A stretch of DNA of 64,000 bases. Origin: an uncultured virus (IMG/VR IMGVR_UViG_3300048691_000212) (Duplodnaviria > Heunggongvirae > Uroviricota > Caudoviricetes). The number at the start of each line of letters is the position of its first letter. Position 1 is the stretch's first letter. Shown here in pieces: positions 1 to 32,936 of this stretch. A program made the position numbers and the translations under genes. The stretch is taken from the IMG/VR virus record IMGVR_UViG_3300048691_000212; one strand, written 5' to 3'. The notes below the pieces were generated by a model. It ran no database searches and was not told where the DNA came from. It worked only from the letters and a program-made list of their open reading frames with translations.

Positions 1-469
1 GGATAGAAATGAAGTCAGAATTATCTTTAGACCAGTTAAAACAAGTATCTAGCACAAGTATTTTTGTGTTTTTGTGTTTGTTTAAACAGTGGTTTTCGAT
101 AAATTCTAGAAAACTTCTAATTCCTATCATTTTTTCTGAGTAAAGTTGAAAATACTCAAAAATCCATTTATTAGAATTTATCTTATCTACATAATCAGCG
201 AGTAAAATATCAAACTTAGGACTTTTTTCTACTTTGGTTACATAGTGTTCTATTTGATCATGTATTTGATTAATAGTGCTTTCAAATAACAAAACTTCTA
301 CACAAGTTTCCTTAGTATTTTCATTAAGAAAAGCTATGTCTTTTAGTAACGTAAGAATAAAACCAGTTTGAAATGATCCAGGATAGCCTGTAAACATATA
401 AATACCGGTTTTGTTTAAACCACCATTTAGAGCTTCGCTAAAGTTAGGAAAAGCAGTTTTGTATTTCAT
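1..469 (-). CDS. RecA/DnaB-like P-loop protein with degenerate Walker A (runs off window edge; absent from ORF track)
   Basis: Manual translation from ATG 469: MKYKTAFPNFSEALNGGLNKTGIYMFTGYPGSFQTGF...VLLFES...ILVLD, open to base 1. The layout matches DnaB/RecA N-terminal motifs but the Walker A Lys is Gln. Confidence 0.55.
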   Translation of the reverse strand, partial: MKYKTAFPNFSEALNGGLNKTGIYMFTGYPGSFQTGFILTLLKDIAFLNENTKETCVEVLLFESTINQIHDQIEHYVTKVEKSPKFDILLADYVDKINSNKWIFEYFQLYSEKMIGIRSFLEFIENHCLNKHKNTKILVLDTCFNWSKDNSDFISI

Positions 470-471
470 TA

Positions 472-987
472 TCATTTCTGATTCCAATTTGTCAAAGTAT
501 CAAATCTTTCTTTCCTGAATAAATTATAAACAGGAATACCTAGACGACTAGCGTGCGCAATGGCTTGTCCTGTACCTCCTGATTTAGAGCTTCTTTCGGA
601 CTCTTTCTCCATTCCATCGAGTGTCCAGCATAACACCATTTTTACAGGATTGTTTAGGTTGGGACCTAAAAGTTGCATACAGTTTCTAGCCATCAAAGAC
701 TGAGCACCTTGATTTAATCTTGTCCAGCCAGGATGTATGGTACTTGCTATTGTGTATGCTTCAGAAGGAATAGGGAACACTAGTTGCTGCCCTTGAAAGC
801 CGTTCCAAGGCACAAATATTTGTTTCTCTACACACCCACTACTAAATGCAGTATCAGCTCCCTGAGCCCCTCCTGACCTCAGTACCCATCCTTGTTTTTC
901 TAACTTAGTGGCTAGATTAGTCATCAAAGATAGAATAGACAAAGGTGTTTGCCTTGACCCTATTCCAGCGTAGTATTTAAACATCAT
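472..987 (-). CDS. SLOG/DprA-like Rossmann-fold nucleotide-binding protein
   Basis: YAGIGSRQTP, LRSGGAQGAD, ARN and GGTGQAI motifs. Confidence 0.8.
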   Translation of the reverse strand: MMFKYYAGIGSRQTPLSILSLMTNLATKLEKQGWVLRSGGAQGADTAFSSGCVEKQIFVPWNGFQGQQLVFPIPSEAYTIASTIHPGWTRLNQGAQSLMARNCMQLLGPNLNNPVKMVLCWTLDGMEKESERSSKSGGTGQAIAHASRLGIPVYNLFRKERFDTLTNWNQK

Positions 988-1324
988 GGTTACCCATTCG
1001 TATAACTGGATAAAGTTGCTCTAAGCAACGTTTATCTTTGTCTGTTGGTGGAAAACGAGAGTACCCGTGCTCATGAATACTCTCAATAATGTCATTTAAA
1101 ATGTTCAAAGAGAGATTCTCGGCTGATACTATTTTTCTAGAAACTGTTTGTAAAGTTATCAGACCGTCTGTTGTCAATACAGGATTGTTCATAAGTAACC
1201 CAGAAAGATACGATTCAATAAAAGTAATCGGCATGTCTCTTACCAGTGTTGTTTTGTTATTTGACTTTATTAAATCCTTTATTAGACAGGTTAAATCTTT
1301 AGGTCTGTCAAAAATATTTCTCAT
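977..1324 (-). CDS. hypothetical protein
   Basis: ORF; start moved to ATG 1324, giving an ATGA overlap with the upstream stop. Confidence 0.6.
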   Translation of the reverse strand: MRNIFDRPKDLTCLIKDLIKSNNKTTLVRDMPITFIESYLSGLLMNNPVLTTDGLITLQTVSRKIVSAENLSLNILNDIIESIHEHGYSRFPPTDKDKRCLEQLYPVIRMGNHDV

Positions 1325-1782
1325 GTAGTTCCAACAAACTGAGCCATGAATTTTCTTGCTGAGTACCAAGCTTCTAATTGAACACGTCTAGTTGTCTGGT
1401 CTTCAATCTCACCCACAGCATCTAAACCGTCTTCAATTGCAAGTAACTCTTCTTTACTAAATACCCATTTTTTATCTTCAGTCCTACGATCTCTAATAAC
1501 ATTCAGTAGATCAAAGATGTCTTTAATAGCACCCTGTGTTTCCTCGGTATAAACTATTAAACTTATCTCATAAGCTAGTTTCATCCTAATGGTGAGATTA
1601 AACCAATCGTTAGCATCGCATATTCCTTCTGCGCACCGTTTTAAAGACGCTCTTGGTACTGAGCGTATAAGATCTTTTTGTGCTTTAGGAATAGCAATAT
1701 TAATAGGGTTATAAGTTTTGTATTTCTTCTTAGGCGCAGGACCACTAAACTTAATAAGTGGAATTTTGATATTAGCAGTCAT
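1321..1782 (-). CDS. hypothetical helical phage protein
   Basis: 153-aa ORF coupled to both neighbours. Confidence 0.65.
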   Translation of the reverse strand: MTANIKIPLIKFSGPAPKKKYKTYNPINIAIPKAQKDLIRSVPRASLKRCAEGICDANDWFNLTIRMKLAYEISLIVYTEETQGAIKDIFDLLNVIRDRRTEDKKWVFSKEELLAIEDGLDAVGEIEDQTTRRVQLEAWYSARKFMAQFVGTT

Positions 1783-2093
1783 TTTATTCTAGCGAGTATA
1801 AAGTTTTTTCTTAATGTGTTTAATTGGTCTAGCCAAAATACTCTATTTATTTTAATTGTCATTAGATCAAATTTATCATACTCATCAATATTTCTTTCAA
1901 CCCTAGAAGGAAAATAATCGAAAGATCTAATGTGTTTATATATCTTAGTAAAAGCACCCCTAAGAACACCGTCAGTAAAACCAGTAGTTGCAGTAAGTTG
2001 CTTTAAGCTACTACCTTCTAAAAGTTTTATAAATAATTCTATTTTCTCTACAGTAATTGGTGCTAGCTCTGACATAATACCTTTAAAATTCAC
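1779..2093 (-). CDS. hypothetical protein, possible HTH
   Basis: ORF; LLEGSSLKQLTATTGFTDGVLR is HTH-like; start may be ATG 2075. Confidence 0.55.
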   Translation of the reverse strand: MNFKGIMSELAPITVEKIELFIKLLEGSSLKQLTATTGFTDGVLRGAFTKIYKHIRSFDYFPSRVERNIDEYDKFDLMTIKINRVFWLDQLNTLRKNFILARIK

Positions 2094-2114
2094 AAATAAA
2101 AATCAGCTCATAAA

Positions 2115-2154
2115 TACTAGTATGACTTATCCAAAAAGATAAGTCATACTAGTA
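2115..2154 (-). terminator. perfect 17-bp hairpin closing the long non-coding interval
   Basis: tactagtatgacttatc-caaaaa-gataagtcatactagta; TATG follows on minus (cata 2109-2112). Confidence 0.8.
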
Positions 2155-4345
2155 AAACATTGTACTTCTAACTAACAAATTTATGGTATACTAATTACAA
2201 TACGGAAAACAATACGGCCTATAACTGTAATTTATCAGCGGTATACCAGCATCTGATAAATAACCTACCTGGTCAGGGTTGAATAGAGAGATGGCGCTCT
2301 TATTCGCATTTAGTACTTATAGCCATTACAAGAGTCGTGACCAGACTGAGGCTTGGAAGCACAACATTAACAAAGCGACAAAACTTTGAGTGTGTGACTG
2401 ACTAGCAGAGTACTCCATGTATTCCATTCACCTTTTTGGTTGTACCTAACCTAAGGGATAGATTGTTGAAAATTACGCTAAAAGGCATAATTCTTTTGGC
2501 TTTTGCTACTACGGGCTATTCTTCCTAGTTAGGAAAGCGTACCGGGTCACTCATTTCAGTAAGGTTGAACAATCAACCACCTTACCTATCATCACTAGCT
2601 CCTTTCGGGGTGACAGGTGATAATGCGCTGCAATTATTACGTTGCAGAATATTTCTTTAATTGAAAAATACTTCGCTTTTAAGCATTAACAAATCCAGTG
2701 TATTTCCGAGACCGTCTTAGAATGTTCAGATAGTATTCTATCTACTGGCTTTTGAAACTCTTTCGAGCCTCTCTTTAGAGTAGTTAGGACATACAACTAC
2801 TACCCCTATCTCACCTCATTGATCGCTTAGATCCAAAGGGTTCAATACTATCAGTATTTCTACTGATTATTCTTTAAATTAAGACTGGTTAGTAATTTAC
2901 CAGACAACTTGATTTGTATTTACACTCAACAGCTGATTTTGTCAACACTTATGTAAACTTATTACACTCCGATTACACACTTACTGTGATGTATTCGGAG
3001 AATCAAGTAATTGCAACGCTACGTACCCTCTATTGCTAGAGGACATTAGGTCTTTATTCCCAACCTTGCAATTTCATTTTTCGCAGTAATCCAATAATCG
3101 ACCGGTGTAATACCAATCCTTCCCTGCGGTTTATATTTTTAGTCACTGGAGGACTAATCTGTTTCGCTTCACAGCGTAGCCAGACAGACTATATCTTCAG
3201 AGTTAGTAGACCCGGTTGCAACCAGGTATTTATCTGAATACCCATCTAACAGCAAGCTGCTGTTATTATACATGATTCTGTTTTAGGTCCGGTGCCTTAA
3301 AATCATGATGGTATATTTTCTCTACTAGTTTCATGGTGCTGTTCCATTGGCGACTCCACAATACCTAGCGGCATTGCTTCAAAGTCTCACACCTACCCTA
3401 TAACTTCACTAGTTTTTCTATTACTTGTAAACCAATAGTTTTTAGCGTCGTCAGTTTAAAAGCTGAAGCACCCAACGTATTTACTTTCACAGTGAGAATT
3501 GTTAACTAATAATTTCTTATTAGATCTTTTTTACTTTCCTAAAGATTACCATACGTTAAAGGATCTTATTAGGCCTAGCTGTTAATAATCATGGCTTTAA
3601 TCTGCACCAAAGCTTTAGACTTTTTAACAATTCTACATACTGTTGTAATGCAGTACATCAAATACTCTTCTTAAAAGAAGTTTAGCTTTTTAATACCGGC
3701 TACTAAGTAATCCGCACCAAAAGCATTCGGTCTCTTCCGAACTTATTTGACTATAGTGTTTTCCCAGAACTACCAATAAGACCTTTTTCTTTCGATAGAG
3801 AATCTAATTCTGAGGTTGTTTATATCCACCAATGGCTGGCTTTACTGTTCGAAAAAACCAAACAGTCGAAGGGGTTCACTTTAACTTGGTTGGATAAACC
3901 ATGAAGCAAAAGCACCAAGATAAACCCTATCGACTATTCTCTTCTGTAAAAAGAAGAATAATTAGGTTCTGATTTGTTCATTGGTCTAGGGTAAGACCAA
4001 TGAACGACGCTACCGTAAACGCCAGATGTCTTCACTGTATAATTCAATTTTACAGTATTAATCATTTTAACCGTAAAATCTATTTCACTCCGCGCTTCCA
4101 GAAATGAAATTTTAGAACCAAGGAGCATTGGTTAGTGGGGCTAAAGGTCACGCATACACCGTCGCGTATTTGTTATCCAGTTTGACTATCCACCTAAGCC
4201 TAACACATGTTTTACAGACAAGGTTGTCGCTATTACATTACCTGAGTAATGTTTCATCTTTATTTTAAAGTCCAAGATTCGTCAGATAACTAGACTGCTG
4301 TTTCTATATATTAACAAGAATATGTAAAATATTTCTTACCCTATT
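2155..4345 (-). ncRNA. candidate ~2.1-2.2 kb structured non-coding RNA (or RNA cluster), family unknown; ends approximate
   Basis: No credible ORF. Many hairpins; minus-strand GNRA loops at 2599-2610, 2758-2767, 2850-2867, 3027-3042 and 3506-3523. Long-range complementary blocks. Bounded by a promoter-like motif and a terminator-like hairpin. Confidence 0.75.
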
Positions 4346-4351
4346 CTACTT

Positions 4352-4371
4352 TAATATTAAGTGTGTGAAAA
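4352..4371 (-). promoter_or_regulatory. candidate phage promoter, variant of the TTTT-N-CACTTATTAT motif
   Basis: minus strand ttttcacacacttaatatta resembles the motifs at 14403, 44904 and 60912. Confidence 0.4.
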
Positions 4372-4374
4372 TAT

Positions 4375-4857
4375 CTAAGATGCGTTTTTATTTCCAAACA
4401 AAGGAAATGGTGTTTTAGGCATTGTCATCTTTACTTTGGCTGTAGCAAAGTTTTCATCTTCTGTGTTAGGTCCAGAAGAAAATGAACTGCCTTCTTCATA
4501 GGTAGAAATAGGATTTTCATTATTCTGCCTAGCGCCAATAATAGGGGATACTCTATTAACGCCTGTTGTGGACTTTGAAACTGTCTCCATCTCTGCATTA
4601 GCCGATACCCCTAAAGCGGCACCAACAAGACCAAATAAAGCACCCATACCAATTCCAAAGGACTGTATATCAAAAGGTCTGCCTTGTTTAACTACATCAA
4701 ATATAGATAAGCCTAGAGCAACAAGGACAGTAAGCATAGTCAATATTTTAATTAGAGAAGCTGTTTCATTATCAGAATTAGTTAGACACTGTTTCATTAT
4801 AACAGCTAAATTCTGAGCCGCTATTACACCTGGTCTTCGTATTACTTTAGTAACCAT
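4375..4857 (-). CDS. two-TM membrane protein, holin-like
   Basis: hydrophobic ILTMLTVLVALGLSIF and FGIGMGALFGLVGAALGV, then a polar tail. Confidence 0.55.
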   Translation of the reverse strand: MVTKVIRRPGVIAAQNLAVIMKQCLTNSDNETASLIKILTMLTVLVALGLSIFDVVKQGRPFDIQSFGIGMGALFGLVGAALGVSANAEMETVSKSTTGVNRVSPIIGARQNNENPISTYEEGSSFSSGPNTEDENFATAKVKMTMPKTPFPLFGNKNAS

Positions 4858-4898
4858 AATAGTATCCTTAAAATTACATAAAATAATAAGGATACTAA

Positions 4899-5258
4899 CT
4901 AGTTAGTATTTCTAATACCCCAAAGCTCAGTAGCTTGACACTGCCTGCCCTTTTGTCCAAATATATCAGACAAACCACTAGCTTGCTTTAACACATTCAG
5001 TAAGTCGGGATTTTCATTAATATACTCCTTCCAGAGTTTACTATAAAGTATAACACAATCTTCCATGTTGATTGGGTATTTACCTTTAGCCTCTCTCCAA
5101 TGAAGGCCCGTTAAACCATTTTCAAATATTTTAGCTGCTTGGTAAATATCTTCAATAGATTTATTTCCCCTGCTTTTTATTCTAGCAAAGAAAGCACTAA
5201 AACGTTTGTCACCTTTACTACTGCATTCTAGGAATGGTGCAACACCATGTCTAATCAT
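4899..5258 (-). CDS. NADAR-like ADP-ribose hydrolase (DarG1/NADAR-antitoxin-like)
   Basis: LECSSKG..FSAF...SIEDIYQAAKIFENG resembles the LEISSK..LSAF...E..(F/Y)Q..K.F pattern. Confidence 0.5.
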   Translation of the reverse strand: MIRHGVAPFLECSSKGDKRFSAFFARIKSRGNKSIEDIYQAAKIFENGLTGLHWREAKGKYPINMEDCVILYSKLWKEYINENPDLLNVLKQASGLSDIFGQKGRQCQATELWGIRNTN

Positions 5259-5316
5259 TAAGACACCTCTAAAGTAAATGATCCCACTGTGTGTGTACTG
5301 TACTTAAATGGTATAT

Positions 5317-5622
5317 TTAACACGTACTTCTCCTTAAATTAAAATGTCTTGATTCTTGTGCCTTAGATATTCTATTAAAAGCGTTTAAACAAGCCTCTAA
5401 ACATTCGTAATCTGGCGAGTTATCAATGTAGCGCCATTCTTCACTCACTTTGTCATAAGCGGTTATTATGTACCCACCATCGGGATATTCTTGGTTTACG
5501 TAAGGTGTGCCAGTATTGAATACTTTATAAACAGAACCTGTTTGCGCAAAATAAATAACTCTATTCTTATCAACAATTATGCGTTGTGTGTTTTCTATTT
5601 TTGGAAAAAGTTCATTTGGCAT
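5317..5622 (-). CDS. hypothetical protein
   Basis: 101-aa ORF. Confidence 0.6.
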   Translation of the reverse strand: MPNELFPKIENTQRIIVDKNRVIYFAQTGSVYKVFNTGTPYVNQEYPDGGYIITAYDKVSEEWRYIDNSPDYECLEACLNAFNRISKAQESRHFNLRRSTC

Positions 5623-5678
5623 AAAATATTTCTGTAGTATATAACAATAGCTCAGTACGTAAAAAATAAAAATGCAGC

Positions 5679-5710
5679 ATAAACAGAGAGTTTTTACACT
5701 CTCTGTTTAT
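5679..5710 (-). terminator. 13-bp hairpin after dcd
   Basis: ataaacagagagt/actctctgtttat; TATG on minus. Confidence 0.75.
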
Positions 5711-6322
5711 TTAAACCAAAGCTGTTTGTAGTGTATTTTGACCTTGATATTTACGATTACCGTCAGCATAAGAAACAGTGCAGTCCGAATCTCCTTTGAA
5801 GAACAAGAACTGAGCAATACCTTGATTAGCGTAAACCTTCAACGGTAAATTAGTAGCATTGCTAATTTCAATAACTACATTTCCTTCAAAACCTGCTTCA
5901 ATAGGTGTTACGTTCACAATGGCACCTACGCGAGCATAGGTAGACTTTCCAACACAAACAACCATAATGTCTTTAGGTATTACAAAATATTCTTTTGTTT
6001 TACCAAGCACGTAACTATTTGGTGGAATAATAACAAAATCACCAGTATGGTCAACACAGCAGTTTTGATCAAAATCGAGTGGGTCAATTATTGTGGAGTT
6101 GATATTAGAGAATATTTTAAACTCTTTATCAAGTATTACATCGTAGCCGAAAGACGAAAGTCCGTACGATATTGCTTTCTTTTCTACGACAGCTTTTCCT
6201 TCATGTTCAGGAGAACTACAGAGAATAGTGCGTACCTGGAAAGGGGTAAAAGGTTTGATCATTGGCTTTGTAAGCTTAGACTCACAGAGCTTTGCAATTT
6301 GGTGGTCAGCTAAAATAGACAT
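5711..6322 (-). CDS. dcd: dCTP deaminase
   Basis: ISYGLSSFGYDV, GKSTYARVG, TPIEAGFEG, GIAQFLF and KYQGQ motifs. Confidence 0.95.
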   Translation of the reverse strand: MSILADHQIAKLCESKLTKPMIKPFTPFQVRTILCSSPEHEGKAVVEKKAISYGLSSFGYDVILDKEFKIFSNINSTIIDPLDFDQNCCVDHTGDFVIIPPNSYVLGKTKEYFVIPKDIMVVCVGKSTYARVGAIVNVTPIEAGFEGNVVIEISNATNLPLKVYANQGIAQFLFFKGDSDCTVSYADGNRKYQGQNTLQTALV

Positions 6323-6328
6323 ACATTC

Positions 6329-6703
6329 CTAAGTTAAAATTGCTTTGTGTTTGATTGAGTGAATATTTTCACTGTCTTTTTGTTTTGCAATATTATTGAT
6401 TGCTTTGGCTCTATCAGTTAGACAGTAACGATCTTCTCCGTGCATAATTACCGTTTCCAAAAGTCCTTTGTCACGTAAACTAGACACAGCTTCTTTAACG
6501 AGAACTTTTACACTTACCTGGCGATGGTATTGGTAACCATATTCAGAAAGATTTAATTGAACCATTAAGTGCTTTGCTTTAGATTCAATAGTTTCATAAC
6601 GAACCCTGGTAACCACCATTGTACTTAAAACAAAAAGAAGTGATTTCTCATTGTGGTTAAGTGTGTCAAAAAATTCGGTATTGTTTAATTCAGAGTTATG
6701 CAT
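6329..6703 (-). CDS. winged-helix protein, paralogue 1
   Basis: L...EK.LL, KEAVSSLRDKGLL and YCLTDRA. Confidence 0.6.
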   Translation of the reverse strand: MHNSELNNTEFFDTLNHNEKSLLFVLSTMVVTRVRYETIESKAKHLMVQLNLSEYGYQYHRQVSVKVLVKEAVSSLRDKGLLETVIMHGEDRYCLTDRAKAINNIAKQKDSENIHSIKHKAILT

Positions 6704-6708
6704 TTTTT

Positions 6709-7035
6709 TTAAAGCAGAGGTAATTGTGCTTGACTTTCTATCAAACGTTTCTTTACAAATGGTGAAATATGGCTTCCATCCATAGTGAGAGAATAGTAGT
6801 TTTTGTCAGAAATTTTAATATTTGACAAAAGTTTTTTATTTACCAAAGAAAGTACAGCTTCTCTTATCGAGGTTTCTGATATTGGTTTTATTATTTTACT
6901 TTTAATATCAGATATTCTGTGCGTTCTTTCAACTAAAATACTAAATGTTTGTTGAACTACTAATTCAGAATGTGTCAAAGTTAAACATATTTTATTAAGT
7001 AAAATATTTTCTGCTTCACTTAAATGTTTATTCAT
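6709..7035 (-). CDS. winged-helix protein, paralogue 2
   Basis: LSEAENILL, REAVLSLVNKKLL and YSLTMDG; start set to ATG 7035. Confidence 0.6.
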   Translation of the reverse strand: MNKHLSEAENILLNKICLTLTHSELVVQQTFSILVERTHRISDIKSKIIKPISETSIREAVLSLVNKKLLSNIKISDKNYYSLTMDGSHISPFVKKRLIESQAQLPLL

Positions 7036-7043
7036 TTCATTTC

Positions 7044-7394
7044 CTAGATGCAAATTTCAGTTATTACGCCACAACGTACCGCAGTTTCTTTTTCCACTTG
7101 TGCCAGATAATCTAAGACGCTTAAACCTTTTAAAGTAAGGATAGCACATTTTGCTAATATTTTTTCAGAGTCTATAAATCTTTTCTCGAAACTTACTAAG
7201 TCTTTTTCCACTAACTTAATTAAGCTTTCTCTTGCTTTTATAATAGTTATGTTTTTTCCAAAGATTGCAGATGCTTCAGAAATACTTACAAGTCGACCAC
7301 CGTTCTTAGTTTGCCTGCCTAAGTTTTGCAGAACCATTAGTTCTAGTTTCCCCAAAGATTTAAGGATTTTAATTGTCTCAGTATTCAAAGTCAT
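7044..7394 (-). CDS. winged-helix protein, paralogue 3
   Basis: LGKLELMVL, RESLIKLVEKDLV and ILTLKG; the track start lies inside a hairpin, so ATG 7394 is preferred. Confidence 0.6.
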   Translation of the reverse strand: MTLNTETIKILKSLGKLELMVLQNLGRQTKNGGRLVSISEASAIFGKNITIIKARESLIKLVEKDLVSFEKRFIDSEKILAKCAILTLKGLSVLDYLAQVEKETAVRCGVITEICI

Positions 7395-7445
7395 CTTGTC
7401 AGTTGTTGTTACTAAATAATAATCAGCAGTAGTAATTTTTACAGC

Positions 7446-7490
7446 ATAAATCCCTCTAGATTCCATAAAAGGTAATCTAGAGGGATTTAT
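7446..7490 (-). terminator. 17-bp hairpin
   Basis: ataaatccctctagatt/aatctagagggatttat; TATG on minus. Confidence 0.75.
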
Positions 7491-7566
7491 AAGCTGCTTT
7501 TACTTTTCGTACCTTCGCGTATCACAAACGCCAATGGTTAATGAGTTTATAACTCTTAGCATACTA

Positions 7567-8103
7567 TTAGTGGTAGTTTGGAATAGAAAACTTTAATTCA
7601 ATATCTAATTCACCAAAAGTCAGGTAATTGTACAGCTGACCTATAAAAATAGCATTTGTGAAAATGTGAATACTGGAGTTACATTTAAACTCCAAGCTAT
7701 TGCTGACCACTTTACCTTCAACTTCTGTGTAAGATTCGAAGAAATCAAAATTACCATGCTGACTAACAGAACTTAGTTTTATAGCAATGTTTCTTTTTGT
7801 TGTTTTGTTTACTAATAAAGTATCGAAAAGTATTTCACGATAACCAAAGAAACAAGCCGCCAGTCCTCCAGGTTCTACTACTGGGGTGGTGGTTTGGATA
7901 ATGTAATCATTTCTATTAATCAAACTAAGCTCGCCTCTGGCACGCCAATACTCATCTAAAGCATCCATTATCATAGCTTGAGCCCTAAGAGTTGCATTCT
8001 CTGCAAAAGCATCATCTTGATAATTTAGCATCCGCGTATGGTCGGTTGGTTCCTTAGGGGTAAAAACAAAAGGAGGAATAGTTTTTTCTACCTGCTGTTC
8101 CAT
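7567..8103 (-). CDS. hypothetical protein
   Basis: 178-aa ORF. Confidence 0.65.
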   Translation of the reverse strand: MEQQVEKTIPPFVFTPKEPTDHTRMLNYQDDAFAENATLRAQAMIMDALDEYWRARGELSLINRNDYIIQTTTPVVEPGGLAACFFGYREILFDTLLVNKTTKRNIAIKLSSVSQHGNFDFFESYTEVEGKVVSNSLEFKCNSSIHIFTNAIFIGQLYNYLTFGELDIELKFSIPNYH

Positions 8104-8558
8104 TAGTCAACTACCTCATTTTTGTAAAATTCGATTAATGCTTTAAAACTAAAAGGTAACCACGTTGCTTCAGCTTTTGAAAACGCAAAACAAATACCTG
8201 GTCTAAGGTTTTTAGGTACCTGATCTATAAAATCAGGTACAAAGAAAATTTTGTCAGCATGTGCTTTTGTATATGCAACAAAAGCCTTGATATTAAACTT
8301 AAAAGCTCTAATATCAGTCATACCTCCTTCACTATCTCTTAATTCTAAACCAAAACTATTATTAAAAGGGCCTTGTGTAGTTGTGTAACTAGCTCCGTGT
8401 TTATGCACCGCATAATTACCAGTTAGACTATTATTTCCAGTATCGGCCTGAGATAGAAATAAAAAAATATGGTTAGGTGATGGCTCTAGATCACCTACAT
8501 AAAAATTGTCTTTACAGTCACAGGTAAGCAACTCTTCTTTTATAGTAGCAACATTCAT
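8103..8558 (-). CDS. degenerate phage macrodomain-like protein
   Basis: IFLFLS...AVHKHGA....QGPFNNSFGL...IKAFVAYTKAH..KIFFV follows the phage IFVFGSN...FGA..G.G..G.SYAIP pattern but lacks the Gly-rich loops. Confidence 0.4.
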   Translation of the reverse strand: MNVATIKEELLTCDCKDNFYVGDLEPSPNHIFLFLSQADTGNNSLTGNYAVHKHGASYTTTQGPFNNSFGLELRDSEGGMTDIRAFKFNIKAFVAYTKAHADKIFFVPDFIDQVPKNLRPGICFAFSKAEATWLPFSFKALIEFYKNEVVD

Positions 8559-8562
8559 TTGT

Positions 8563-8802
8563 TTAAAACCAATTTCTATAACACAGTATTTTATTTTCTT
8601 CTAGTTCTTGTACTAAAAGAGTGGCTTTTTGTTTTCTTTTAAAAACACAGACATAGTGGTCTAAATCTATTTCTGGAAATAATGCGCATTTCCATGAATA
8701 TATATTTAAAATGTCTGTGTTTTTTTTTAATACTTTCTCGTTTAACCAGTACTCTATATTCCGTAGGGTAGTAATTAGACCAATGTAATGAATTAATTCC
8801 AA
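8563..8802 (-). CDS. hypothetical protein
   Basis: 79-aa ORF, start uncertain. Confidence 0.45.
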   Translation of the reverse strand: MELIHYIGLITTLRNIEYWLNEKVLKKNTDILNIYSWKCALFPEIDLDHYVCVFKRKQKATLLVQELEENKILCYRNWF

Positions 8803-8851
8803 GTTCCATTTATTACCTTAACCTTTACTGACTATAGAATACTTTGTCTAT

Positions 8852-9271
8852 TTAAACTTTTGTCTTGAAGTGTTTAAAGTTTTTTAACTGGTACTTATCT
8901 GGAGAAAGATTCAGTTTTTGAATTTGTTCATTTAAGTCATTTTTTTTTGTTGAGACTAAAACATAGTCATCCCCATTTAGTTTCCACGGTTGTTTTACTA
9001 AGGACTCTGGTGGTATAACGTTTTTACTTACTAGAAGAATATAAACTGTTTCTATAATTTCATCTTGAGAGTTAACCCAAAACCACTTACTCCAAGCTTT
9101 ACCAAAACCAAAGTATTCAGGTCCAACAGCCGAAGTAGTGTAGGTACTAAATTTTTCTACGTCACTTGATTTCTCAAGTACGCGTAAAATATCAAACAAC
9201 TCACTAGCGGGTGAAATTAGTTTACCTGTTTTACTATTACAGTATTTGATTTCAATAGTGACCAAAGACAT
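8852..9271 (-). CDS. hypothetical protein
   Basis: 139-aa ORF. Confidence 0.6.
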   Translation of the reverse strand: MSLVTIEIKYCNSKTGKLISPASELFDILRVLEKSSDVEKFSTYTTSAVGPEYFGFGKAWSKWFWVNSQDEIIETVYILLVSKNVIPPESLVKQPWKLNGDDYVLVSTKKNDLNEQIQKLNLSPDKYQLKNFKHFKTKV

Positions 9272-15153: not shown

Positions 15154-16644
15154 TTAATCTACTTCTGCTCTAAACATTTTCTTACTTGAAGGCATGAGAT
15201 AATAAAGGTATTTTTTATTCGTTGTAGTTCTTTTAGTGTCAGACTCAAGAACAAACAAACGCTTACCATCTATAATGGTGTTTAAAATACTAGGTATTGA
15301 CCCATAACCCACTAGCGCTTTTTTATCGATATCATACCCAACAAATCTAGGATTTTCACCTATTACTGGGTTTATTTGGCAGTAAATAATCTTGTTATCG
15401 ATAGTTTGCCCCATTGCAAAACTAGAAGAATTGGTAAAGATTTCATTACCACCATAGATATCCTCAACCCATTCTTTCGAAGGAAAATCGTAAGAATCTA
15501 AGAGGTTGGTGTTGTCACAACGAAAAGAAAGTATTTTTCTATACTTGGTGCTATTATCGCTATTAACTGTTTTAGGACAAGCTATCCAGTTTAAATTACT
15601 GGCTTTACTATGGTTACCCCATCTGCTGGTTGCGGTGTTTATAAAAGTCCATAAATTACTTGAAATAGAATACGAATATAAGGCATCACCACCATTACCA
15701 GTAAGATAGATTATATCTTCATTACCTATCAAAGAAAACCCTATACCTAGAGTGCTGCTGGAGAAGGCCGGTGATACAGTAATGCTCGTACTTGTATTAG
15801 AAATAACTAATCTTTTTTCGCCATATAAAACATCGTAATTTCCTATAGCAACAAGGCCTATAAAAGCGTTTACTGGATATAAAGCGTAAGGGTTTGTTAT
15901 TTGGGTGGAAGTAGATCCATCACCACCAGTAACAAATAAGTCAGTATAGCCATTAGTAAAAACTTCCATAGATCCACTACTGGACCAAGTAGCTGGTAGA
16001 TTAGTTACGGACAACCCGGTGCTCCAAGTTTGTGTTGCGTAATCAAAGTACTTAAAGCTATTATTATTCAAGGTACCAGCATTAAAAACATAATACCTAC
16101 CAGTATAAAAATCTATAACAGTGCCGGGTTCTATATTGGGTACATTCTGCCCCGATAATATAAGATAAATTATACTATTAAAACCAGTTGTATTACCAAC
16201 TATAGAAACTATTTTACCTTTATCTACGCCAGATTGAATAATTCCATAAAATACATTTTCTATACTGAGCTCGCTGTAAGGGTCTTTAGCTCGTAGGTTA
16301 GTTAAAATATTTAAATTAGTTACAAAAGAGGCACCGTCGTTACCACCTGCATAGGGATCAGGCCAAATACTTCCTCCCGACCCCGCTTGTGCTACAGCGG
16401 TAAATGACTTAGGGTGATACACCCCACAACTACCTGGTCCAAACGTACCTCCTAAATTAGGGTCAGCTATTTTAGTCCATCCGTCAGTAACAGCTGAATA
16501 ATTATAAACACTATTATTTCCAGTAACATATAAACAGTTTTTGTTTATATTGGCGTTAGACTGTATAAAAAAAGAATCAGGTGTTGAATCAATGGGGCAG
16601 GGTGCGCACTTTTCCCATATTCTTAAATTCTTAATGTCACTCAT
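15154..16644 (-). CDS. putative virion/tail protein with Kelch-like beta-propeller, paralogue A
   Basis: YFDYATQTW, DIIYLTGN and YSYS...W repeats; similar to the next gene. Confidence 0.6.
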   Translation of the reverse strand: MSDIKNLRIWEKCAPCPIDSTPDSFFIQSNANINKNCLYVTGNNSVYNYSAVTDGWTKIADPNLGGTFGPGSCGVYHPKSFTAVAQAGSGGSIWPDPYAGGNDGASFVTNLNILTNLRAKDPYSELSIENVFYGIIQSGVDKGKIVSIVGNTTGFNSIIYLILSGQNVPNIEPGTVIDFYTGRYYVFNAGTLNNNSFKYFDYATQTWSTGLSVTNLPATWSSSGSMEVFTNGYTDLFVTGGDGSTSTQITNPYALYPVNAFIGLVAIGNYDVLYGEKRLVISNTSTSITVSPAFSSSTLGIGFSLIGNEDIIYLTGNGGDALYSYSISSNLWTFINTATSRWGNHSKASNLNWIACPKTVNSDNSTKYRKILSFRCDNTNLLDSYDFPSKEWVEDIYGGNEIFTNSSSFAMGQTIDNKIIYCQINPVIGENPRFVGYDIDKKALVGYGSIPSILNTIIDGKRLFVLESDTKRTTTNKKYLYYLMPSSKKMFRAEVD

Positions 16645-16654
16645 TTATATTTCC

Positions 16655-18130
16655 TTATAGTCTATTATAGAGCTCAGTTCTATACATTGTGTTTGTGGCT
16701 GGCATTACGTAATATAAGAATCTAGCTTGAAGTACGTTATCTGACCAACTAGAAATTATACCCAGTTTTAATCCACTTGTATTTATAGTCATCTTAGCGG
16801 GAACCACACTAACTGGAATATTAGACTGGTAACTTAAATCAAATTTAGTTATTTTAGGTCTTGTGGTGTTGGTTGTGTTTAAATGACCATAAATAGTATC
16901 TTCGCTGTCATAAACCCACCCACCTTCTTGTACATCACTGCCTTCTTTTGCTGAGGGTATTTGTGTCCATGTACGTAAACCAATATTATAAATATCATAA
17001 GCTACTGAACCTCCCCTAGCACTAAGTAAATGAGAGTGGTTAACTAAAGGACCATTTGCACCTGAAGATTTATAAATAAAATCTAAAGATGTTCCAGGAC
17101 CTGCGTTACCTCCTCTGGGTGTATCCACAGATACTGCTGACCAAGTATCTGTGGAAGGAATATACGAATACAAGATGTCGCTATCGTTACCAGTTAGATA
17201 AATTATATCTTCATCGCCTACTATTTTAAAAAGATCAAAGTTACCGGGCGTTGATGGAAATGGAGAAACTACTGTAATGTTAGTAACTCCATTACTAGCT
17301 ATCTTGCGAGATAGACCGTTATTTACACCCGACACACTTAACAACACAGCGTCCCTGTATCTATTTACAACCATAGGGGAGTTTCCAGGGTATGTAATAT
17401 AAGACGCAGTAGATCCCGTGTATGCAGGTATACCGGGACCATATGTGAGATAAGAAGTACAATGAGTCATTGAACCACTAGTATTCCACGTGGTAGGCAA
17501 ACCCGTAATAGATAAGGCATCGCCCCAAGTTTGCGTAGCATAATCAAAATATTGAAAACTACCTGTTCCTAAACTACCACCTGCATTAAGTAGATAGTAT
17601 CTACCAGTGTAAAACACTACAACTGAATCTGTATCTAAGCCGGGAGTAGTCCCTGACGTATTGTGTAGATATATTTTACTATTAGGACCTGTGGTATTTC
17701 CTACAATTTTTAGTCTGGTTCCTGCGCCATAACCAGAAATCACAAAAGCTTCAAATTTTTTACCCGTACCAGCAACAGCTAGATTTGCTAGTAAAGTTAA
17801 ATTAGTTGGAAACTCTGCTGCCTGCGTAACACTGTCACCGTTAAAAAACGTGCCATTTCCGGGAGCTGTATATTTGGTGCAATTCAAGGTAAATGACTTA
17901 GGGTGATACACCCCACAACTACCTGGTCCAAACGTAGGTCCACCAAATTTATTCATTTCCACCCAAGCATCATTCTTGGATGAATATATTTGTACTTGAC
18001 TTCCTGAATTAACATACATCAATTCATTTTCTTCTGGACCACCTGTGATTAAATGAGCCCCGTCCTGATGAACTTCAGGAACAGTGGCGCACTTTTCCCA
18101 ATATTTTAAGTTTGTAAATTTATCTGTCAT
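16655..18130 (-). CDS. putative virion/tail protein with Kelch-like beta-propeller, paralogue B
   Basis: WEKCA, TFGPGSCGVYHPKSFT, YFDYATQTW and DIIYLTGN shared with paralogue A. Confidence 0.6.
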   Translation of the reverse strand: MTDKFTNLKYWEKCATVPEVHQDGAHLITGGPEENELMYVNSGSQVQIYSSKNDAWVEMNKFGGPTFGPGSCGVYHPKSFTLNCTKYTAPGNGTFFNGDSVTQAAEFPTNLTLLANLAVAGTGKKFEAFVISGYGAGTRLKIVGNTTGPNSKIYLHNTSGTTPGLDTDSVVVFYTGRYYLLNAGGSLGTGSFQYFDYATQTWGDALSITGLPTTWNTSGSMTHCTSYLTYGPGIPAYTGSTASYITYPGNSPMVVNRYRDAVLLSVSGVNNGLSRKIASNGVTNITVVSPFPSTPGNFDLFKIVGDEDIIYLTGNDSDILYSYIPSTDTWSAVSVDTPRGGNAGPGTSLDFIYKSSGANGPLVNHSHLLSARGGSVAYDIYNIGLRTWTQIPSAKEGSDVQEGGWVYDSEDTIYGHLNTTNTTRPKITKFDLSYQSNIPVSVVPAKMTINTSGLKLGIISSWSDNVLQARFLYYVMPATNTMYRTELYNRL

Positions 18131-18195: not shown

Positions 18196-19632
18196 TTATT
18201 CTGTATAACCTTGGAAATTAACCATACCAGCAATAATCTGCGAAGCTGTTGCTGTTCCAACAGGTATTCTCAAAATTACATGTATGAATCTACCGCTAGA
18301 ACAATAGTGAGGAGTATTAAAACTTTTGACTAAAGTAACGGCACACGTACCTATTGCAGCGCCAACAGGAAGTGTTTGAGCGCCAAGACCAACGCGTTGG
18401 ACAGTTGCTGTCGCCAGAGAGACAGCAGTGCTACCAACCCCCAATGCCCAAGTCAATAAGGTGGGTGTGGTTGCAATTGCTGCACCCGTTACCCATGCGT
18501 CAATAGTTACACCTGTTATAACGAAGTTACTTGGCGCAGGTACCTGAAAACCAAATAAAGCAAAATCAGTTACGGCACCGGCAACCGCAGCAAATTGAAA
18601 TTTACCACCTAGTGTACCATAGCCTGCCGCTGTGTTTGATAATACAGCACTTGCTGGCTCTGCTGAGTTAGTCCAAGCAGGTAACTGTGCACCTGTAAAA
18701 GGATTTTCTATAATACTTCTATTTAAAGAAGCAGAAACATCTCCCCAGGCTTTGGTTTGGTTAATATCCAACAAAAGAATATTAAAATCACTAAGACCTA
18801 ATTGGGGCGCTGTCGATGGAGCTGTACCGGTTATATAAAGCCTAGCTAATCCCGATATTTGTGTTGTACTTAAAAGACGCTGAGCGGTTACTGGTAGCTT
18901 AATAACCTGCCTAGAAATTATTATATCAGAAGAAGCATCCTGAATAATGTAAGTAACGGAGTCATCATCTAAAATAACGTCAAACGTATAGTAGTTTGTT
19001 ACTTCTAAAAGACCAGAAACATCTACACCTGTTAGAACATTTGAGTTAAAAACAAGCACCGGAACCAATGCCCCAGTCGCACCCTTTTCCCAATAAGCAC
19101 CTGTTGTATTTGCGCCGTTAAAAGTAGTAGCATCTCCAAAACCTAACTGAATCACAGAATTGGTAGTGCTATTAACTCTAGCTCTAAATTTACCATGTAT
19201 AGGGGCTCGCAAAGACTTCATTGCTTTCTTGGCACTGAGTACCGAGTACCCGGTGTTAATAGTGGTTATGTTTCCACTATTAAAAGTAATTCCGTTAGCC
19301 GACGAGACAGTCGCCGCCATTGTGGTAGCAGTAATAGTCCACCTAACAGGATGTAAAACCGTTCCTTCGAAAGAATCCATTACAACTGGTACAAAGGAAG
19401 CTAAGGCTGTGCTACCTAATCTGTCTGTTCTAATAGCTTTGGCAATACCGTCGTTTACACCCATTGACACTATGCCGAGTCTACCGTCGTTAGACCCATT
19501 AGGGGCATTTTGTTGAGACTCAGCAACAATGCTATTACCGTTAGTGTCTTTTAAATCAACAGCGGCTGCAAAATTATTAAGACCTATCCTTAGTGTTAAG
19601 CTAGGGTTTTCTGCGCTATGAATAATAGCCAT
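18196..19632 (-). CDS. putative virion structural protein (beta-sandwich/lectin-like)
   Basis: A/T/G-rich beta protein inside the tail module. Confidence 0.55.
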   Translation of the reverse strand: MAIIHSAENPSLTLRIGLNNFAAAVDLKDTNGNSIVAESQQNAPNGSNDGRLGIVSMGVNDGIAKAIRTDRLGSTALASFVPVVMDSFEGTVLHPVRWTITATTMAATVSSANGITFNSGNITTINTGYSVLSAKKAMKSLRAPIHGKFRARVNSTTNSVIQLGFGDATTFNGANTTGAYWEKGATGALVPVLVFNSNVLTGVDVSGLLEVTNYYTFDVILDDDSVTYIIQDASSDIIISRQVIKLPVTAQRLLSTTQISGLARLYITGTAPSTAPQLGLSDFNILLLDINQTKAWGDVSASLNRSIIENPFTGAQLPAWTNSAEPASAVLSNTAAGYGTLGGKFQFAAVAGAVTDFALFGFQVPAPSNFVITGVTIDAWVTGAAIATTPTLLTWALGVGSTAVSLATATVQRVGLGAQTLPVGAAIGTCAVTLVKSFNTPHYCSSGRFIHVILRIPVGTATASQIIAGMVNFQGYTE

Positions 19633-19635
19633 ATT

Positions 19636-21051
19636 TTATCCTATAAAAAAATTTACAAAATAATTTCCACTAAAGGGTATTCCTAAAGTAGAAGTTACTA
19701 TTAATGTTAGTTCATTTCCACCGACTACATAAGCGTAACAAACTAAAGGATTAAATTCTAATTCATCCAGGTGCTTATCTAATTCAGGATTAAAATCTGT
19801 GGTATTTTTAAAACCTATTGAAGCATTTACAATGTTCAACAAAGGATCTAACGGAACACTAGTGTTGGGTATAAAATTACCTACTATATCTGTACTTGTG
19901 AAAGTTTGGGTTTGTGTTGGTCTATTTATAAAAATATCATTGACAAAATCATAACCAAGAGAAATTTTAAAACAATAAGCTTTTACTGAAGAACTTCCCC
20001 CACCAACAAATGGCGTAGCCCATTCTAAATCATAATTTGCATTTGATGATTTTGTAAGAACTTGATTGACGGAACCACCTACCGGGACACTAGTACTGGG
20101 GAGAGCATAGTCAACCCCCGCAACAGCTTGCTGTATAACGCCACCAATAACGCCATTAGGATCAGGACCTGTCTCAGCTACTGCTTTTAACATTCCATAA
20201 AAACCATTTGTTTTTATGTTTAGGGCCTTATCAGTTGATTCTCCGTAAATTTCGCTAAAACCAGAACTTGTTAATCCTTTACCCACCAGACGCAAACTGG
20301 GGTCCTCGTATTGGCCAGGAAATATTTCGACGCTTGTTACAGGTAAACCATTTTTCCAATAATAAGACCCATTTGGATTAACTAAATGTGAAGGAACGAT
20401 TGATTGGTTAGGTGGTGGAGGAATACTTATGTCTAAAGTATTCTGTAAAATATCTAATTGTTCTTGTATTTTTCTATCGCCTAACCTGTAACCAGACTCA
20501 ACAAATTCCACAGTCTCAACACTCGGGTAATCGATATCGGGAACAGCTAAAACTACATTACTACCGTTGCCTTTTAACAAACCATTAATAGTTGTTCCTG
20601 AACTGCCACCCGAGGGAGTAATCCATTCAGTGTCATAATCGTCATCTGATGCTTTAGCCAGTACTTGACCAATGGTACCACCAGATACAGGTAACTTTGG
20701 CAGTACTTGCCCACGTAAATTACCTAATCCTGAATTTAATGTACCGTATAAGTTATCTACATTGGTTTTAAGCACAGCTGCTGTGACTTCGGGTGTTGTC
20801 CAGACTAATCTACTTGTAACAGCAAAACTAGCCACAGTTAACACCTGGCCAACAGTACCTATAGGAAATCTAATATTATTAGTTCCATTAAAAGCTAAAA
20901 TATCCCCTGCTACGCTGCTCGGTGATAAGTTATTGAAAGCAAGTGTTTTAGTTATAGCACCAGTACCACCTGAGGTGATAGCAATGCAGTCACCATCAGC
21001 TAAGCTCTCCACCTCCCCTACATAAAGTCCTAGTGGTTTAATTAATGCCAT
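19636..21051 (-). CDS. tail fibre protein
   Basis: two GG..xQVL.K.S...YD.EW fibre repeats; start set to MALIKPLGLY because the track start is inside a hairpin. Confidence 0.7.
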   Translation of the reverse strand: MALIKPLGLYVGEVESLADGDCIAITSGGTGAITKTLAFNNLSPSSVAGDILAFNGTNNIRFPIGTVGQVLTVASFAVTSRLVWTTPEVTAAVLKTNVDNLYGTLNSGLGNLRGQVLPKLPVSGGTIGQVLAKASDDDYDTEWITPSGGSSGTTINGLLKGNGSNVVLAVPDIDYPSVETVEFVESGYRLGDRKIQEQLDILQNTLDISIPPPPNQSIVPSHLVNPNGSYYWKNGLPVTSVEIFPGQYEDPSLRLVGKGLTSSGFSEIYGESTDKALNIKTNGFYGMLKAVAETGPDPNGVIGGVIQQAVAGVDYALPSTSVPVGGSVNQVLTKSSNANYDLEWATPFVGGGSSSVKAYCFKISLGYDFVNDIFINRPTQTQTFTSTDIVGNFIPNTSVPLDPLLNIVNASIGFKNTTDFNPELDKHLDELEFNPLVCYAYVVGGNELTLIVTSTLGIPFSGNYFVNFFIG

Positions 21052-21077
21052 ATTTTCTTTTATAAAAGTTGCTATTA

Positions 21078-21113
21078 AGACAAAAGTGTTTAAACTAATA
21101 AACACTTTTGTCT
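21078..21113 (-). terminator. 15-bp hairpin
   Basis: agacaaaagtgttta/taaacacttttgtct. Confidence 0.7.
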
Positions 21114-28764: not shown

Positions 28765-31700
28765 TTAAGGCCCTGAAGGAACATAAATACCCGTAATTGT
28801 TGGACTTCCTGTTTCATAAATACCGGTTATGGATGGTGTGAAATCTTCTCCGGATTCAAAGAAACTATAACCTTCATTCATTAGTTCAGCACTTTGTCTG
28901 GAAACAGAAATTAGAGGAGCTAGAACTGGGCCTGTTCCTTTAATTGTTCCTGACGAGAAATCCCATGTCTGGTCTTCCCATGCACTAATGTCAAAAAGAC
29001 GCACTAGTGTTAATAACGATTCATTTGTACCTGGATCGTAATTATAAACAAGCTTGAAAATACCGTTACCCTTTTGTAAAAACAAATAATCTTTTCTATT
29101 ACTATTAAACATAGGAACAGGTATTAAATCGTTATTGTTATTACTAGGGATATTTGGAGTTTGTGAGTAAAAATTAAAAGATTTGTTACTATCTAGTCTA
29201 CCTGTGAGTAAAAATCTTTTAGCGCTATAGAAAACATAAGGGACATAATCTGTCTCTAAGTTGTCCCAAATATGCATTCCTATTTCTGGTATAAAATTAA
29301 CCAGACCAGGAACACCTAAAGTCAGAGGTAGTTCTAACTGCGTGGTTGTACCGTTAGTTGTTCTAGATGCAAATAGATAATAGTTTCTATTTCCGTTAAG
29401 TACTTCGTAGCCCGAAACTAAAAAATTTAATTCTAAATGTTTAACTCTATTGGTTGCAGTAACAGGCACTATAGTTTTAGAACTATTAATAACGTAGGGC
29501 GATACGTTAGTTTGACTTATGCTAGAAGTTAAGTATTGATTAATAATACCAAACTGCTGAACAACACCAGGGGTACTCGTACAATCCCAAGCATGCACTG
29601 AAGCATAGTTTAAATCACTTAAAACATTAAACGACACCGAACCAGTGGTAGTGACTAATAAAGGGGTTGAGTATCTGTCTGAAATCTCAAGTAAATTTTC
29701 ACTAAAATTAACCAAACCGTGGTTAGTTATATTTACCTTACTTGTAACCAAGGTATTGTTTTCAAAAGAAACTACCGGTAGGTCTGCATTAAATTTAGTC
29801 TCTAAAGTAATTACTGAGTTCTCAATTACAGCATTCTTAAAATTACTAGGTAAGAGTTTTAAACTAGTAACAGAAATAACACCATTATTAGTAATCGAAT
29901 TACTAGAATCCCTTTTACCAATTAGTTTACTTTGCCCAAACCCTGTCCACGTAACGCCACCGTCAACAGATTTTGCAATACCTTTATTTTTATCTAATAA
30001 AGCATAAACGTTAAATTGGTCGCTAAAAAGAGCTAAAGGTGGACTATTAAAAAATTTAGGATAGCTGAAGTTATCCGATGTGGATAATACCTGGTTACTA
30101 GCTAAGCCTAAGGCCCAGTTTTTCTCAGTTCCTTTAGTTAGGCTAAAGCTATAATCAAAACCTGTTCCGACAATAGGCAGATTGCCATAGAGATCATTAT
30201 AAATACCATTTATGTTCTCCACAATAACAACTGGGTGATATTCACCACCAGCTATATTTCCTATACCGTTATAAAGATGCTTTGATTCCACAGTAAACAA
30301 ATGGTCTTTTTGTACTTGGTAATCTTGGATACTAGAATTCCAAGTAAATCTAAACCCAAATATTGAATCACTTAACTGTGCATGAAATAGTCTCTTACCT
30401 AAGGTGTTGTTAATTATAAGTTGTTGCGGGTGTTGTCCTGACGCCAGAGTAAAATCTGTTTCATTCCACGCTCTACGATTACTTCCAATTCTGATTGAGT
30501 GATAAACCCTAACACCATAAGTCCAGTACCATGAATCTTCTAGGGTGGGGTTATCAGTAAAATAATAAAGATCTGGAGAGGCTTTTCTTATCTTAATAGG
30601 TATTTCAATAACGTCTATAAAAGCATTAGTGTTGTTAACTAGATTAATAGAATAGCTGTTTATATAAGCCAAACCATTGTCTAATTCGTTAAAACTTAAT
30701 GCTCCGTTACAAACCAAAGAAGCAGTGCCCGTAGAACTTAAATCATAGACAATAATTGCTGGAGTGTTAGCACCTTTAATAATGCCGTAAACACTCAGTA
30801 AACTACTTGATAAAAAGCTAAATTTATTTAATGAGTTAGTGTTATCTCCAAGTACAAAACTATTATTACCAATAGCAATACTGCTGAGAGATTTAATACT
30901 TAAAACACCTGTCTCGAAATTAAGCGTTTCTACCAGCGGTAGAGAATAAGTTGTGTTATTTAAAACAGCAGTTCTAGGACCACCCACTACCACAGAAATA
31001 GTGTTCCCATGAATATCTAGGTGTGAAACTTTAAGTGCCGTATTGGTTGGTTTAAATACATTTAAAGTATTTAAATTATGCGTACTTGCGCTCCAGTCCA
31101 AACCAAGAACCGACCCTTTATAAAGTTTATAACTGGTTCCTTGTTTTACAATAGCAAAGACACCGGTAGAATTACTAACTACATTGGTGACATTGCAAGT
31201 TGCATCTGTTAAGTTACCAGACAAGTTTCTTGCTGGTTCTGGTATTTTTGAAACAACTGTCCAGAGTTCAGCTGAGTTGCTGGTAGATAATACCAGGCCA
31301 TGGTAAGTAACTCCGTAAGTCAAAGTACCATTTTTCCAAAGATGAACAAAGGGATAAATATTTTCAATCTTTGTTTCCTTATCTACAACTCTATCATTAA
31401 AAGCAGATAAGTTTAGGTCGCTATTAAGAAAATTATCTTTATGTGTTTCTTTAGACCCGTAGATATCAATGCCTAAAGTAAAGCTATCCACAACACTTAA
31501 ATTTGATCCTAGTAAACTATTAGAAAGATCTCTCTTTGTACTACCTGACAACATTGTATCCAGGATAAACTCAGGATCTAGAGAACTGCCCTCTAGCGTC
31601 ATTTGTTCAGAGCTATAAAAGACAACAGATGTACTAGTAAAGTCCAGAGTTACTACAATATCTTGGCTTGTTCCTACAGACGGTAGTCTGTAGTCAACTA

Positions 31701-32037: not shown

Positions 32038-32097
32038 ATTTGTTTCCTTTAAACCTACAATTATTTTGTAGCCTACGACTACGTCATAAAATAACAC

Positions 32098-32139: not shown

Positions 32140-32155
32140 ATAGTATTGCAATAGT

Positions 32156-32932: not shown

Positions 32933-32936
32933 GAAT

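Follow-up and report, generated by a model that had tools for sequence, protein, structure and literature searches.

The L1 stalk is the arm of the ribosome that binds protein uL1 and grips tRNA; phages are known to carry tRNAs, tmRNA and a few ribosomal proteins, and the large non-coding RNAs (ncRNAs) GOLLD, ROOL and OLE are under about 1 kb. According to the available text of a review, uL1 binds helices 76 to 78 (H76-78) as well as look-alike sites in mRNA leaders, operators that form irregular stem-loops interrupted by an internal loop (PMC10931766). The non-canonical platform pair G2112-A2169 stacks on the G19-C56 pair of tRNA (PMC5309774, text available in part), and Lehmann et al. describe, in the accessible part of their article, the double T-loop core as a tRNA-elbow docking module common to the L1 stalk, RNase P and T-box stem I (PMC3664808). 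Large ornate ncRNAs are the subject of a cryo-EM preprint (10.1101/2024.12.08.627333, likewise available in part). Here we describe a stretch of 2,272 nt (positions 2103-4374) within 64,000 nucleotides of DNA from an uncultured virus (IMG/VR IMGVR_UViG_3300048691_000212), the whole of which is referred to below as the window. Judged from its genes, the source is a phiKZ-like jumbo phage of the Chimalliviridae type, and it comes from fresh water. In lake metatranscriptomes the RNA of this non-coding stretch is far more abundant than that of the neighbouring genes, and it carries a homologue of the L1 stalk of 23S rRNA.

The stalk-like module lies on the minus strand, about 800 nt from the 5′ limit of the RNA (Table 1). 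It was revealed by the Rfam model RF02541 (LSU_rRNA_bacteria) in a covariance-model (cmscan) search limited to the 201 nt of 3280-3480, in which 3413-3324 was aligned; scaled to the whole window, the E-value would be ~4e-8 by our own arithmetic. By blastn, window positions 3439-3335 (minus) match 2077-2178 of the E. coli 23S gene rrlH with 63% identity (E 1e-4), while no second significant segment of E. coli 23S was detected in the stretch and 16S gave no match. In the cmscan alignment the module forms H76, H77 and H78 with three non-canonical positions in outer H76, and the conserved unpaired residues of the L1 head are essentially all present. An alignment with the 23S gene of E. coli and eight candidate-phyla 23S genes contains 37 invariant columns, and all six residues of the double T-loop core (AG..A and UG..A) are found in the phage module. 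Our own covariance model, R1, scores it at 81.9 bits, the window sequence being itself part of the model, and this is the sole real match in the window. Moreover, the module positions are free of variants in all four runs examined. Sequences flanking the module fail to align with the highly conserved flanks of 23S. From its sequence and predicted fold, the module is a bona fide L1 stalk of rRNA origin, an island amid sequence unlike rRNA. The original prediction, a model's reading of the letters alone, had recognized no rRNA signature here; a complete L1 stalk overturns that remark.

The element is not a bacterial LSU rRNA in the sense of the Rfam family, as it covers only 2126-2215 of the 2925 model positions, where a member would match across the six domains with the peptidyl-transferase centre and the sarcin-ricin loop, and reaches 38.5 bits against a gathering score of 50 bits. 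No family attained its gathering score in the whole window and the 2.7-kb scan of 1900-4600 was likewise without find; the same sub-threshold L1 match was missed by the speed filters in both the 64-kb and the 2.7-kb scans. Since it emerged only from the 201-nt scan, Rfam negatives on long inputs are weak evidence. Scans of the small windows 2780-3020, 3000-3300, 3460-3920 and 3900-4260 identified neither rRNA nor any other family, whereas 2150-2780 was covered by the less sensitive 2.7-kb scan only. A look-alike of the GTPase-associated centre (H43-44) at ~2840-2900 was rejected, with a blastn E-value of 2.8 and no match to the LSU model in a 241-nt scan. As a general observation, short rRNA-derived modules elsewhere may be missed likewise in long-input Rfam scans.

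Compared with the bacterial 23S L1 stalk (RF02541 2126-2215), the phage module displays the same three-helix fold, the conserved unpaired residues and the double T-loop core (PMC3664808). It stands alone, however, and lacks the H75/H79 junction, the remaining LSU and the flanks that are conserved in 23S; its H76 is shorter, and its 2112/2169 platform at the tRNA-elbow site (PMC5309774), though still purine-purine, reads A-G instead of G-A. This reciprocal swap occurs in none of the nine other aligned sequences. Like the uL1 operators of the rplK/rplA leaders, as the review presents them, the module is an L1-stalk look-alike off the ribosome and could titrate uL1 (PMC10931766). Unlike them, it is not placed in the leader of an r-protein operon (none of the 63 open reading frames (ORFs) of the window encodes an r-protein), and within its 2-kb phage RNA the head is preserved entire, H78 included. 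The AG..A and UG..A core motif is also used by RNase P and T-box stem I (PMC3664808), whereas the phage module is a sequence homologue of the version in rRNA. Rfam scans of the window and of the stretch matched neither RNase P nor a T-box.

GOLLD, ROOL and OLE resemble the phage RNA in being large, structured and abundant in environmental RNA, and some are phage-borne, but going by the sizes given above it would be about twice as long or more, and it contains an rRNA-derived module. GOLLD, ROOL, OLE, HEARO, raiA and other Rfam ncRNAs gave no match at gathering score in the window, and scans by E-value of 1900-4600 and of five sub-windows returned none of them above chance level.

Expression of the stretch was assessed from public sequencing runs. 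Twenty-four runs are listed with it, all labelled freshwater metagenome, six of them being metatranscriptomes. Contigs of three RNA runs (X6, X12 and X14) and one DNA run (X2) were mapped to positions 1-9000 of the window, divided into 30 bins. The RNA-run contigs are confined to ~2215-4215 in all three runs: depth is found in 8, 8 and 7 of the 30 bins for X6, X12 and X14, respectively, always within 2101-4500, and is zero on the flanks 1-2100 and 4501-9000. In contrast, the DNA run shows depth in 29 of 30 bins, similar on the stretch and on its flanks. Contigs from RNA are identical to the window over up to 811 nt, with depths of up to ~42; those of X6 cover 2215-2444, 2504-2853, 3036-3846 and 3946-4204 at depths of 42, 37, 37 and 11 (10.9), with 0 differences. 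A depth near 40 confined to 2 kb rules out DNA carry-over as the source of the signal. With the contigs of the RNA runs on the stretch only, and those of the DNA run on stretch and flanks alike, the simplest reading is an RNA whose abundance and stability far exceed those of the mRNAs on either side. A stand-alone RNA of ~2.1 kb had been proposed originally: its non-coding nature and its transcription far above the neighbours stand, while the contigs come in pieces and delimit ~2.0 kb (2215-4215) rather than 2155-4345. They would belong to a single transcript, whose 3′ end may be marked either by the 17-bp hairpin 2115-2154, short of which the RNA contigs stop, or by the hairpin 2227-2264.

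Every hairpin of the original prediction was located in the sequence. This holds for the minus-strand GNRA-type loops at 2601-2608, 2758-2767, 2850-2867, 3027-3042 and 3506-3523, for the pair ctggtca (2269-2275) and tgaccag (2338-2344), and for the perfect 17-bp hairpin after the stretch (2115-2131/2138-2154); the acttgatt strand of an enclosing helix is also present, at 2907-2914, one base off the position first given. Minus-strand GNRA loops closed by a stem of at least 4 bp number six, versus 1.69 ± 1.27 expected from 500 dinucleotide shuffles, only two of which reach that count. The plus strand has one for 0.92 expected, so that the enrichment concerns the minus strand only, as had been claimed. 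At 2.95/kb, these hairpins are four times as dense as on the same strand in the remaining window (0.74/kb). For local folding of the minus strand, the 150-nt window starting at 3975 has the lowest z-score (-5.1).

Other signals mentioned at the outset fared less well. Sigma-70-like sites in 1700-5000 are at chance level (16 versus 11.3 ± 3.5 expected), hence the promoter-like motif proposed upstream is no better than chance. Neither 8-mers shared with other intergenic regions nor TTAATATAT are enriched: there are 4 matches, a number reached by 19 of 100 shuffles. The canonical 11-nt GAAA tetraloop receptor is absent from the minus strand, and nothing was found in favour of the suggested ribozyme. 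ARAGORN detected 0 tRNA or tmRNA genes in the window.

Natural variation provides a further view of the structure and of its strand. Run X12 also includes contigs of a variant strain, ~5% different. Its hairpin 3210-3227 shows two compensatory pairs of changes, 3212 C>T/3225 G>A and 3214 G>A/3223 C>T; a further change, 3213 C>T, creates an A-U where the minus strand had G.U and the plus strand a C.A mismatch. Four more substitutions (3252, 3273, 3447 and 2533), placed on single-sequence minimum free energy (MFE) structures, preserve a G.U-type pair, and do so on the minus strand alone. With its 13 substitutions in 2401-2609 the variant gains 8.5 kcal/mol of stability on the minus strand, an effect reached by 0 of 300 random mutation sets, whereas on the plus strand it loses 8.1 kcal/mol. 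A two-sequence consensus fold, built using those same variants, leaves 12 of the 13 unpaired. Covariation from two strains only is suggestive and not a proof. Taken with the GNRA excess, the compensatory hairpin, the G.U-compatible transitions and the gene direction, the minus strand is favoured for the RNA; the genes on both sides of the stretch are on that strand.

Table 1. Features of the non-coding stretch and its borders (positions in the window)
Feature	Position	Strand	Basis
Body of abundant non-coding RNA	2215..4215	-	Outer limits of metatranscriptome contigs; strand inferred
L1-stalk module, 23S helices 76-78	3324..3413	-	Rfam RF02541 positions 2126-2215, 38.5 bits, E 1.3e-10
Hairpin with compensatory changes in natural variant	3210..3227	-	X12 variant contig; pair probability 0.99
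Hairpin, 7 bp, GAAA tetraloop	3506..3523	-	Sequence check and GNRA count
Hairpin, 9 bp (G.U allowed), GCAA tetraloop	3024..3045	-	Sequence check and GNRA count
Hairpin, 7 bp, GAAA tetraloop	2850..2867	-	Sequence check and GNRA count
Hairpin, 7 bp, GAAA tetraloop	2754..2771	-	Sequence check and GNRA count
Perfect 12-bp hairpin, 5′ domain	3976..4005 (3976-3987/3994-4005)	-	Stem search
12-bp hairpin with one mismatch, adjoining 3′ limit of RNA contigs	2227..2264 (2227-2238/2253-2264)	-	
Perfect 17-bp hairpin followed by T-rich tract, candidate terminator	2115..2154 (2115-2131/2138-2154)	-	z -5.4
Upstream non-coding spacer	4216..4374	-	No promoter motif above chance

Relatives of the RNA were sought in several collections. 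In INPHARED, blastn with 2100-4400 found no homologue and with 3300-3440 only nine short chance matches. Two L1-core patterns in IMG/VR hit 2 and 4 loci, with real L1 stalks on only two contigs, one carrying a true 23S gene and the other an L1 head at the contig end; two further IMG/VR signatures had 0 matches. In JGI metagenome contigs, one 21-base signature gave a single match (L012), in coding, GC-rich sequence and attributable to chance. Five related jumbo-phage genomes were scanned with RF02541 and R1, and a true module was present in none of them. The 23-bit R1 match in PhiPA3 is a false positive, antisense in a coding sequence and without the conserved core, and that of Paenibacillus phage Pd_22F corresponds to a whole 23S gene within the record. 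Three IMG/VR loci with related dCTP deaminases show no ORF-free gap of at least 250 nt. For the proteins encoded on either side, 4375-4857 and 1321-1782, IMG/VR yielded no relative; the former, of 160 aa, has five relatives with 46-92% identity, all in Logan assemblies.

The contig-end head constitutes a second isolated L1-stalk head (IMG/VR contig L005, 42.8 kb, positions 1-85; also L026 and L047). Over 72 nt it is 94% identical to E. coli 23S 2109-2180, and R1 scores it at 73 bits. The sequence upstream of the head is unlike rRNA, and the head follows a gene and two terminator-like hairpins. Only 3 nt separate it from the end of the contig, and it may represent a genuine copy carried by a phage, the remnant of an attachment site or a chimera created during assembly.

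Concerning the origin of the module, its H77 variant was searched in one genome per species (185,579 species), which yielded 10 loci (L013-L022), all of them true 23S genes. Seven carry the labels of Patescibacteria-type candidate phyla (Saccharibacteria, Paceibacterota, Parcubacteria or Peregrinibacteria), and the other three belong to unclassified metagenome-assembled genomes with near-identical sequence; the H78 of these ten differs from that of the phage. Other high-depth contigs of the RNA runs match 3351-3400 at less than 90% identity and then continue into unrelated sequence. Over this segment the lake rRNA contigs are closer to the phage, with differences at 4-6 of 38-50 positions (~88% over 50 nt), than the best candidate-phyla 23S, for which we counted ~12 differences in 50. 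We draw no host inference from the H77 comparison.

Could the stretch encode protein after all, under another genetic code or as small proteins? It is the only gap of at least 200 nt in the 64 kb lacking a stop-to-stop frame of at least 80 aa, which bears out the initial description of a unique long ORF-free stretch, and its longest ORF starting with ATG, GTG or TTG, of 64 aa (ATG, 3934-4128, minus), is the single element in favour of coding. TAA, TAG and TGA are all present in the six frames, at 37-66 stops per frame, so that no stop-codon reassignment would open a gene and an alternative code is ruled out. The one-base deletions at 2434 and 3195 in the natural variant of run X12 are a further argument against coding, and the genes beside the stretch read normally under table 11. 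A coding role is thus extremely improbable. Almost as improbable, to our mind, is a long structured leader or trailer of a flanking gene, a cis-regulatory untranslated region in which the L1-like element would act as a uL1-responsive operator comparable to the rplK-rplA leaders. It is true that uL1 operators mimic the 23S site and that the stretch is co-directional with both neighbouring genes. Yet there is no RNA contig on either flanking gene for a depth of ~37 on the stretch, neither neighbour is an r-protein, and the module is ~1.2 kb upstream of the next start codon with the 17-bp hairpin between. Moreover, where the operators are irregular stem-loops with an internal loop, as the review describes them (PMC10931766), the module keeps the whole three-helix head.

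The signal could also come from several separate smaller RNAs, the L1 module being then part of a mid-sized RNA of a few hundred nt. We hold this possible but unlikely. The X6 contigs leave gaps at ~2445-2503, 2854-3035 and 3847-3945, the 5′-most piece is lower in depth (10.9 versus 37-42) and terminator-like sites are found inside the stretch, including 3742-3725 on the minus strand; three of the four X6 pieces, though, have near-equal depth (37-42), the X12 breaks coincide with strain variants, which split assemblies, and there is no outstanding internal promoter motif. Somewhat less probable still is a piece of captured DNA, including a bacterial 23S fragment, decaying without function and transcribed by read-through. 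In its favour are the absence of the stretch from the phage relatives examined, the lack of a homologue in INPHARED, the IMG/VR patterns and the JGI signature, and the modest fold z-scores. But read-through is not expected to produce RNA far above the neighbouring genes, and the conserved unpaired residues of the L1 head are all kept, while the stems differ by pairing-preserving changes. The absence of the conserved 23S flanks, the compensatory hairpin 3210-3227 and the GNRA enrichment on one strand only also argue against it.

We give a probability of roughly 55% to a giant scaffold or decoy ncRNA of ~2.0 kb, running from ~4215 to 2215 on the minus strand and engaging uL1 and/or tRNA through the L1 module. 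Several points weigh against it. Contigs tell neither the strand nor the true ends and give the level only roughly, those of RNA are broken into at least four pieces per run, and the runs were selected by holding this stretch, the 24 ‘studies’ being perhaps one sampling campaign. Fold z-scores of the stretch are modest: its 29 windows of 150 nt have a mean of -1.46 for the minus and -1.28 for the plus strand, against -0.63 and -0.58 in 36 windows of the coding control (standard deviation ~1.2-1.3); they are lower than in coding DNA but only modestly so, and alone would not carry the case for a structured RNA. Within 2401-2609 the single-sequence MFE fold pairs 10 of the 13 variant positions, and several of the changes would break these pairs, while in 3140-3340 the MFE change of the variant is no better than that of random mutations. 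The G2112-A2169 platform pair is replaced by A and G, which remains purine-purine, and an r-protein domain is found in 0 of the 63 ORFs of the window. The closest cultured relative, Burkholderia phage FLC9, lacks a comparable ORF-free gap, its largest being 481 nt, in a genome of 56% G+C where chance frames can hide non-coding DNA. Finally, no homologue of the RNA was found in INPHARED, the IMG/VR patterns, one JGI signature and the five related phage genomes, so there is no phylogenetic covariation.

How might such a scaffold or decoy work? It would engage the translation apparatus via the L1 module, which by analogy could bind host uL1, as do 23S rRNA and the uL1 mRNA operators, and whose double T-loop platform could dock tRNA elbows as in the L1 stalk, RNase P and T-box stem I. 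That H78 and both T-loops are retained along with the rest of the head suggests that selection acts on something beyond the binding of uL1, a further function which we take to be tRNA-elbow docking. A displayed stalk, with or without captured host uL1, would grip deacylated tRNAs or compete with ribosomal E-site dynamics. In its boldest form, about which we are doubtful, this would be the first functional piece of rRNA encoded by a virus, a nucleus-forming jumbo phage exposing on a giant RNA a working L1 stalk off the ribosome. If so, the phage would be able to influence host translation or the tRNA pool by means of an RNA, for instance for tRNA protection or sequestration during infection. 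Binding of uL1 or tRNA by the module, acting as it does in the ribosome, would offer nucleus-forming phages an RNA-based route to act on translation, and would provide a first functional foothold on a giant environmental ncRNA. Chimalliviridae target host ribosomes with proteins early in infection, as stated in the available parts of two articles (PMC10914614, PMC11849849), and an RNA-based interaction with the ribosome would fit this biology. Public lake metatranscriptomes are rich in this RNA, which opens its ends, strand and partners to direct tests.

Searches of the full-text literature, outside of subscription-only papers, retrieved no phage RNA with a functional-looking rRNA domain, no L1-stalk mimic, no ~2-kb phage ncRNA and no kilobase-scale ncRNA of jumbo phages. 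In two recent jumbo-phage reviews, examined by term search, the only mention is that phiKZ expresses non-coding RNAs. A virus-borne copy of the L1 stalk in an abundant ~2-kb RNA is without earlier report in the literature searched.

The assignment of the source to phiKZ-like phages is based on PHROG and Pfam scans of the window, which matched phiKZ internal head proteins, the gp91 vertex protein, a tail tube, a head-tail joining protein and a DNA polymerase, and on a 974-aa virion protein with matches in 290 jumbo-phage records, the best being FLC9 (45% identity). Two genes upstream of the RNA, 4899-5258 (minus) encodes a 119-aa protein similar to the DarT1-associated NADAR antitoxin family (PF22397, 31.7 bits) and to phrog_9995; a possible role is counter-defence against DarT-type DNA ADP-ribosylation. 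Farther away, at 15154-18130 (minus), two adjacent genes of ~490 aa are paralogues, 33% identical over 517 aligned positions (E 1e-68), neither having a PHROG or Pfam match; the next two genes of similar length (18196-21105) show no detectable relation to them. An N-terminal DUF7941 domain, typical of a virion structural protein family, recurs in four consecutive genes at 28765-35535 (minus), which suggests a paralogue array.

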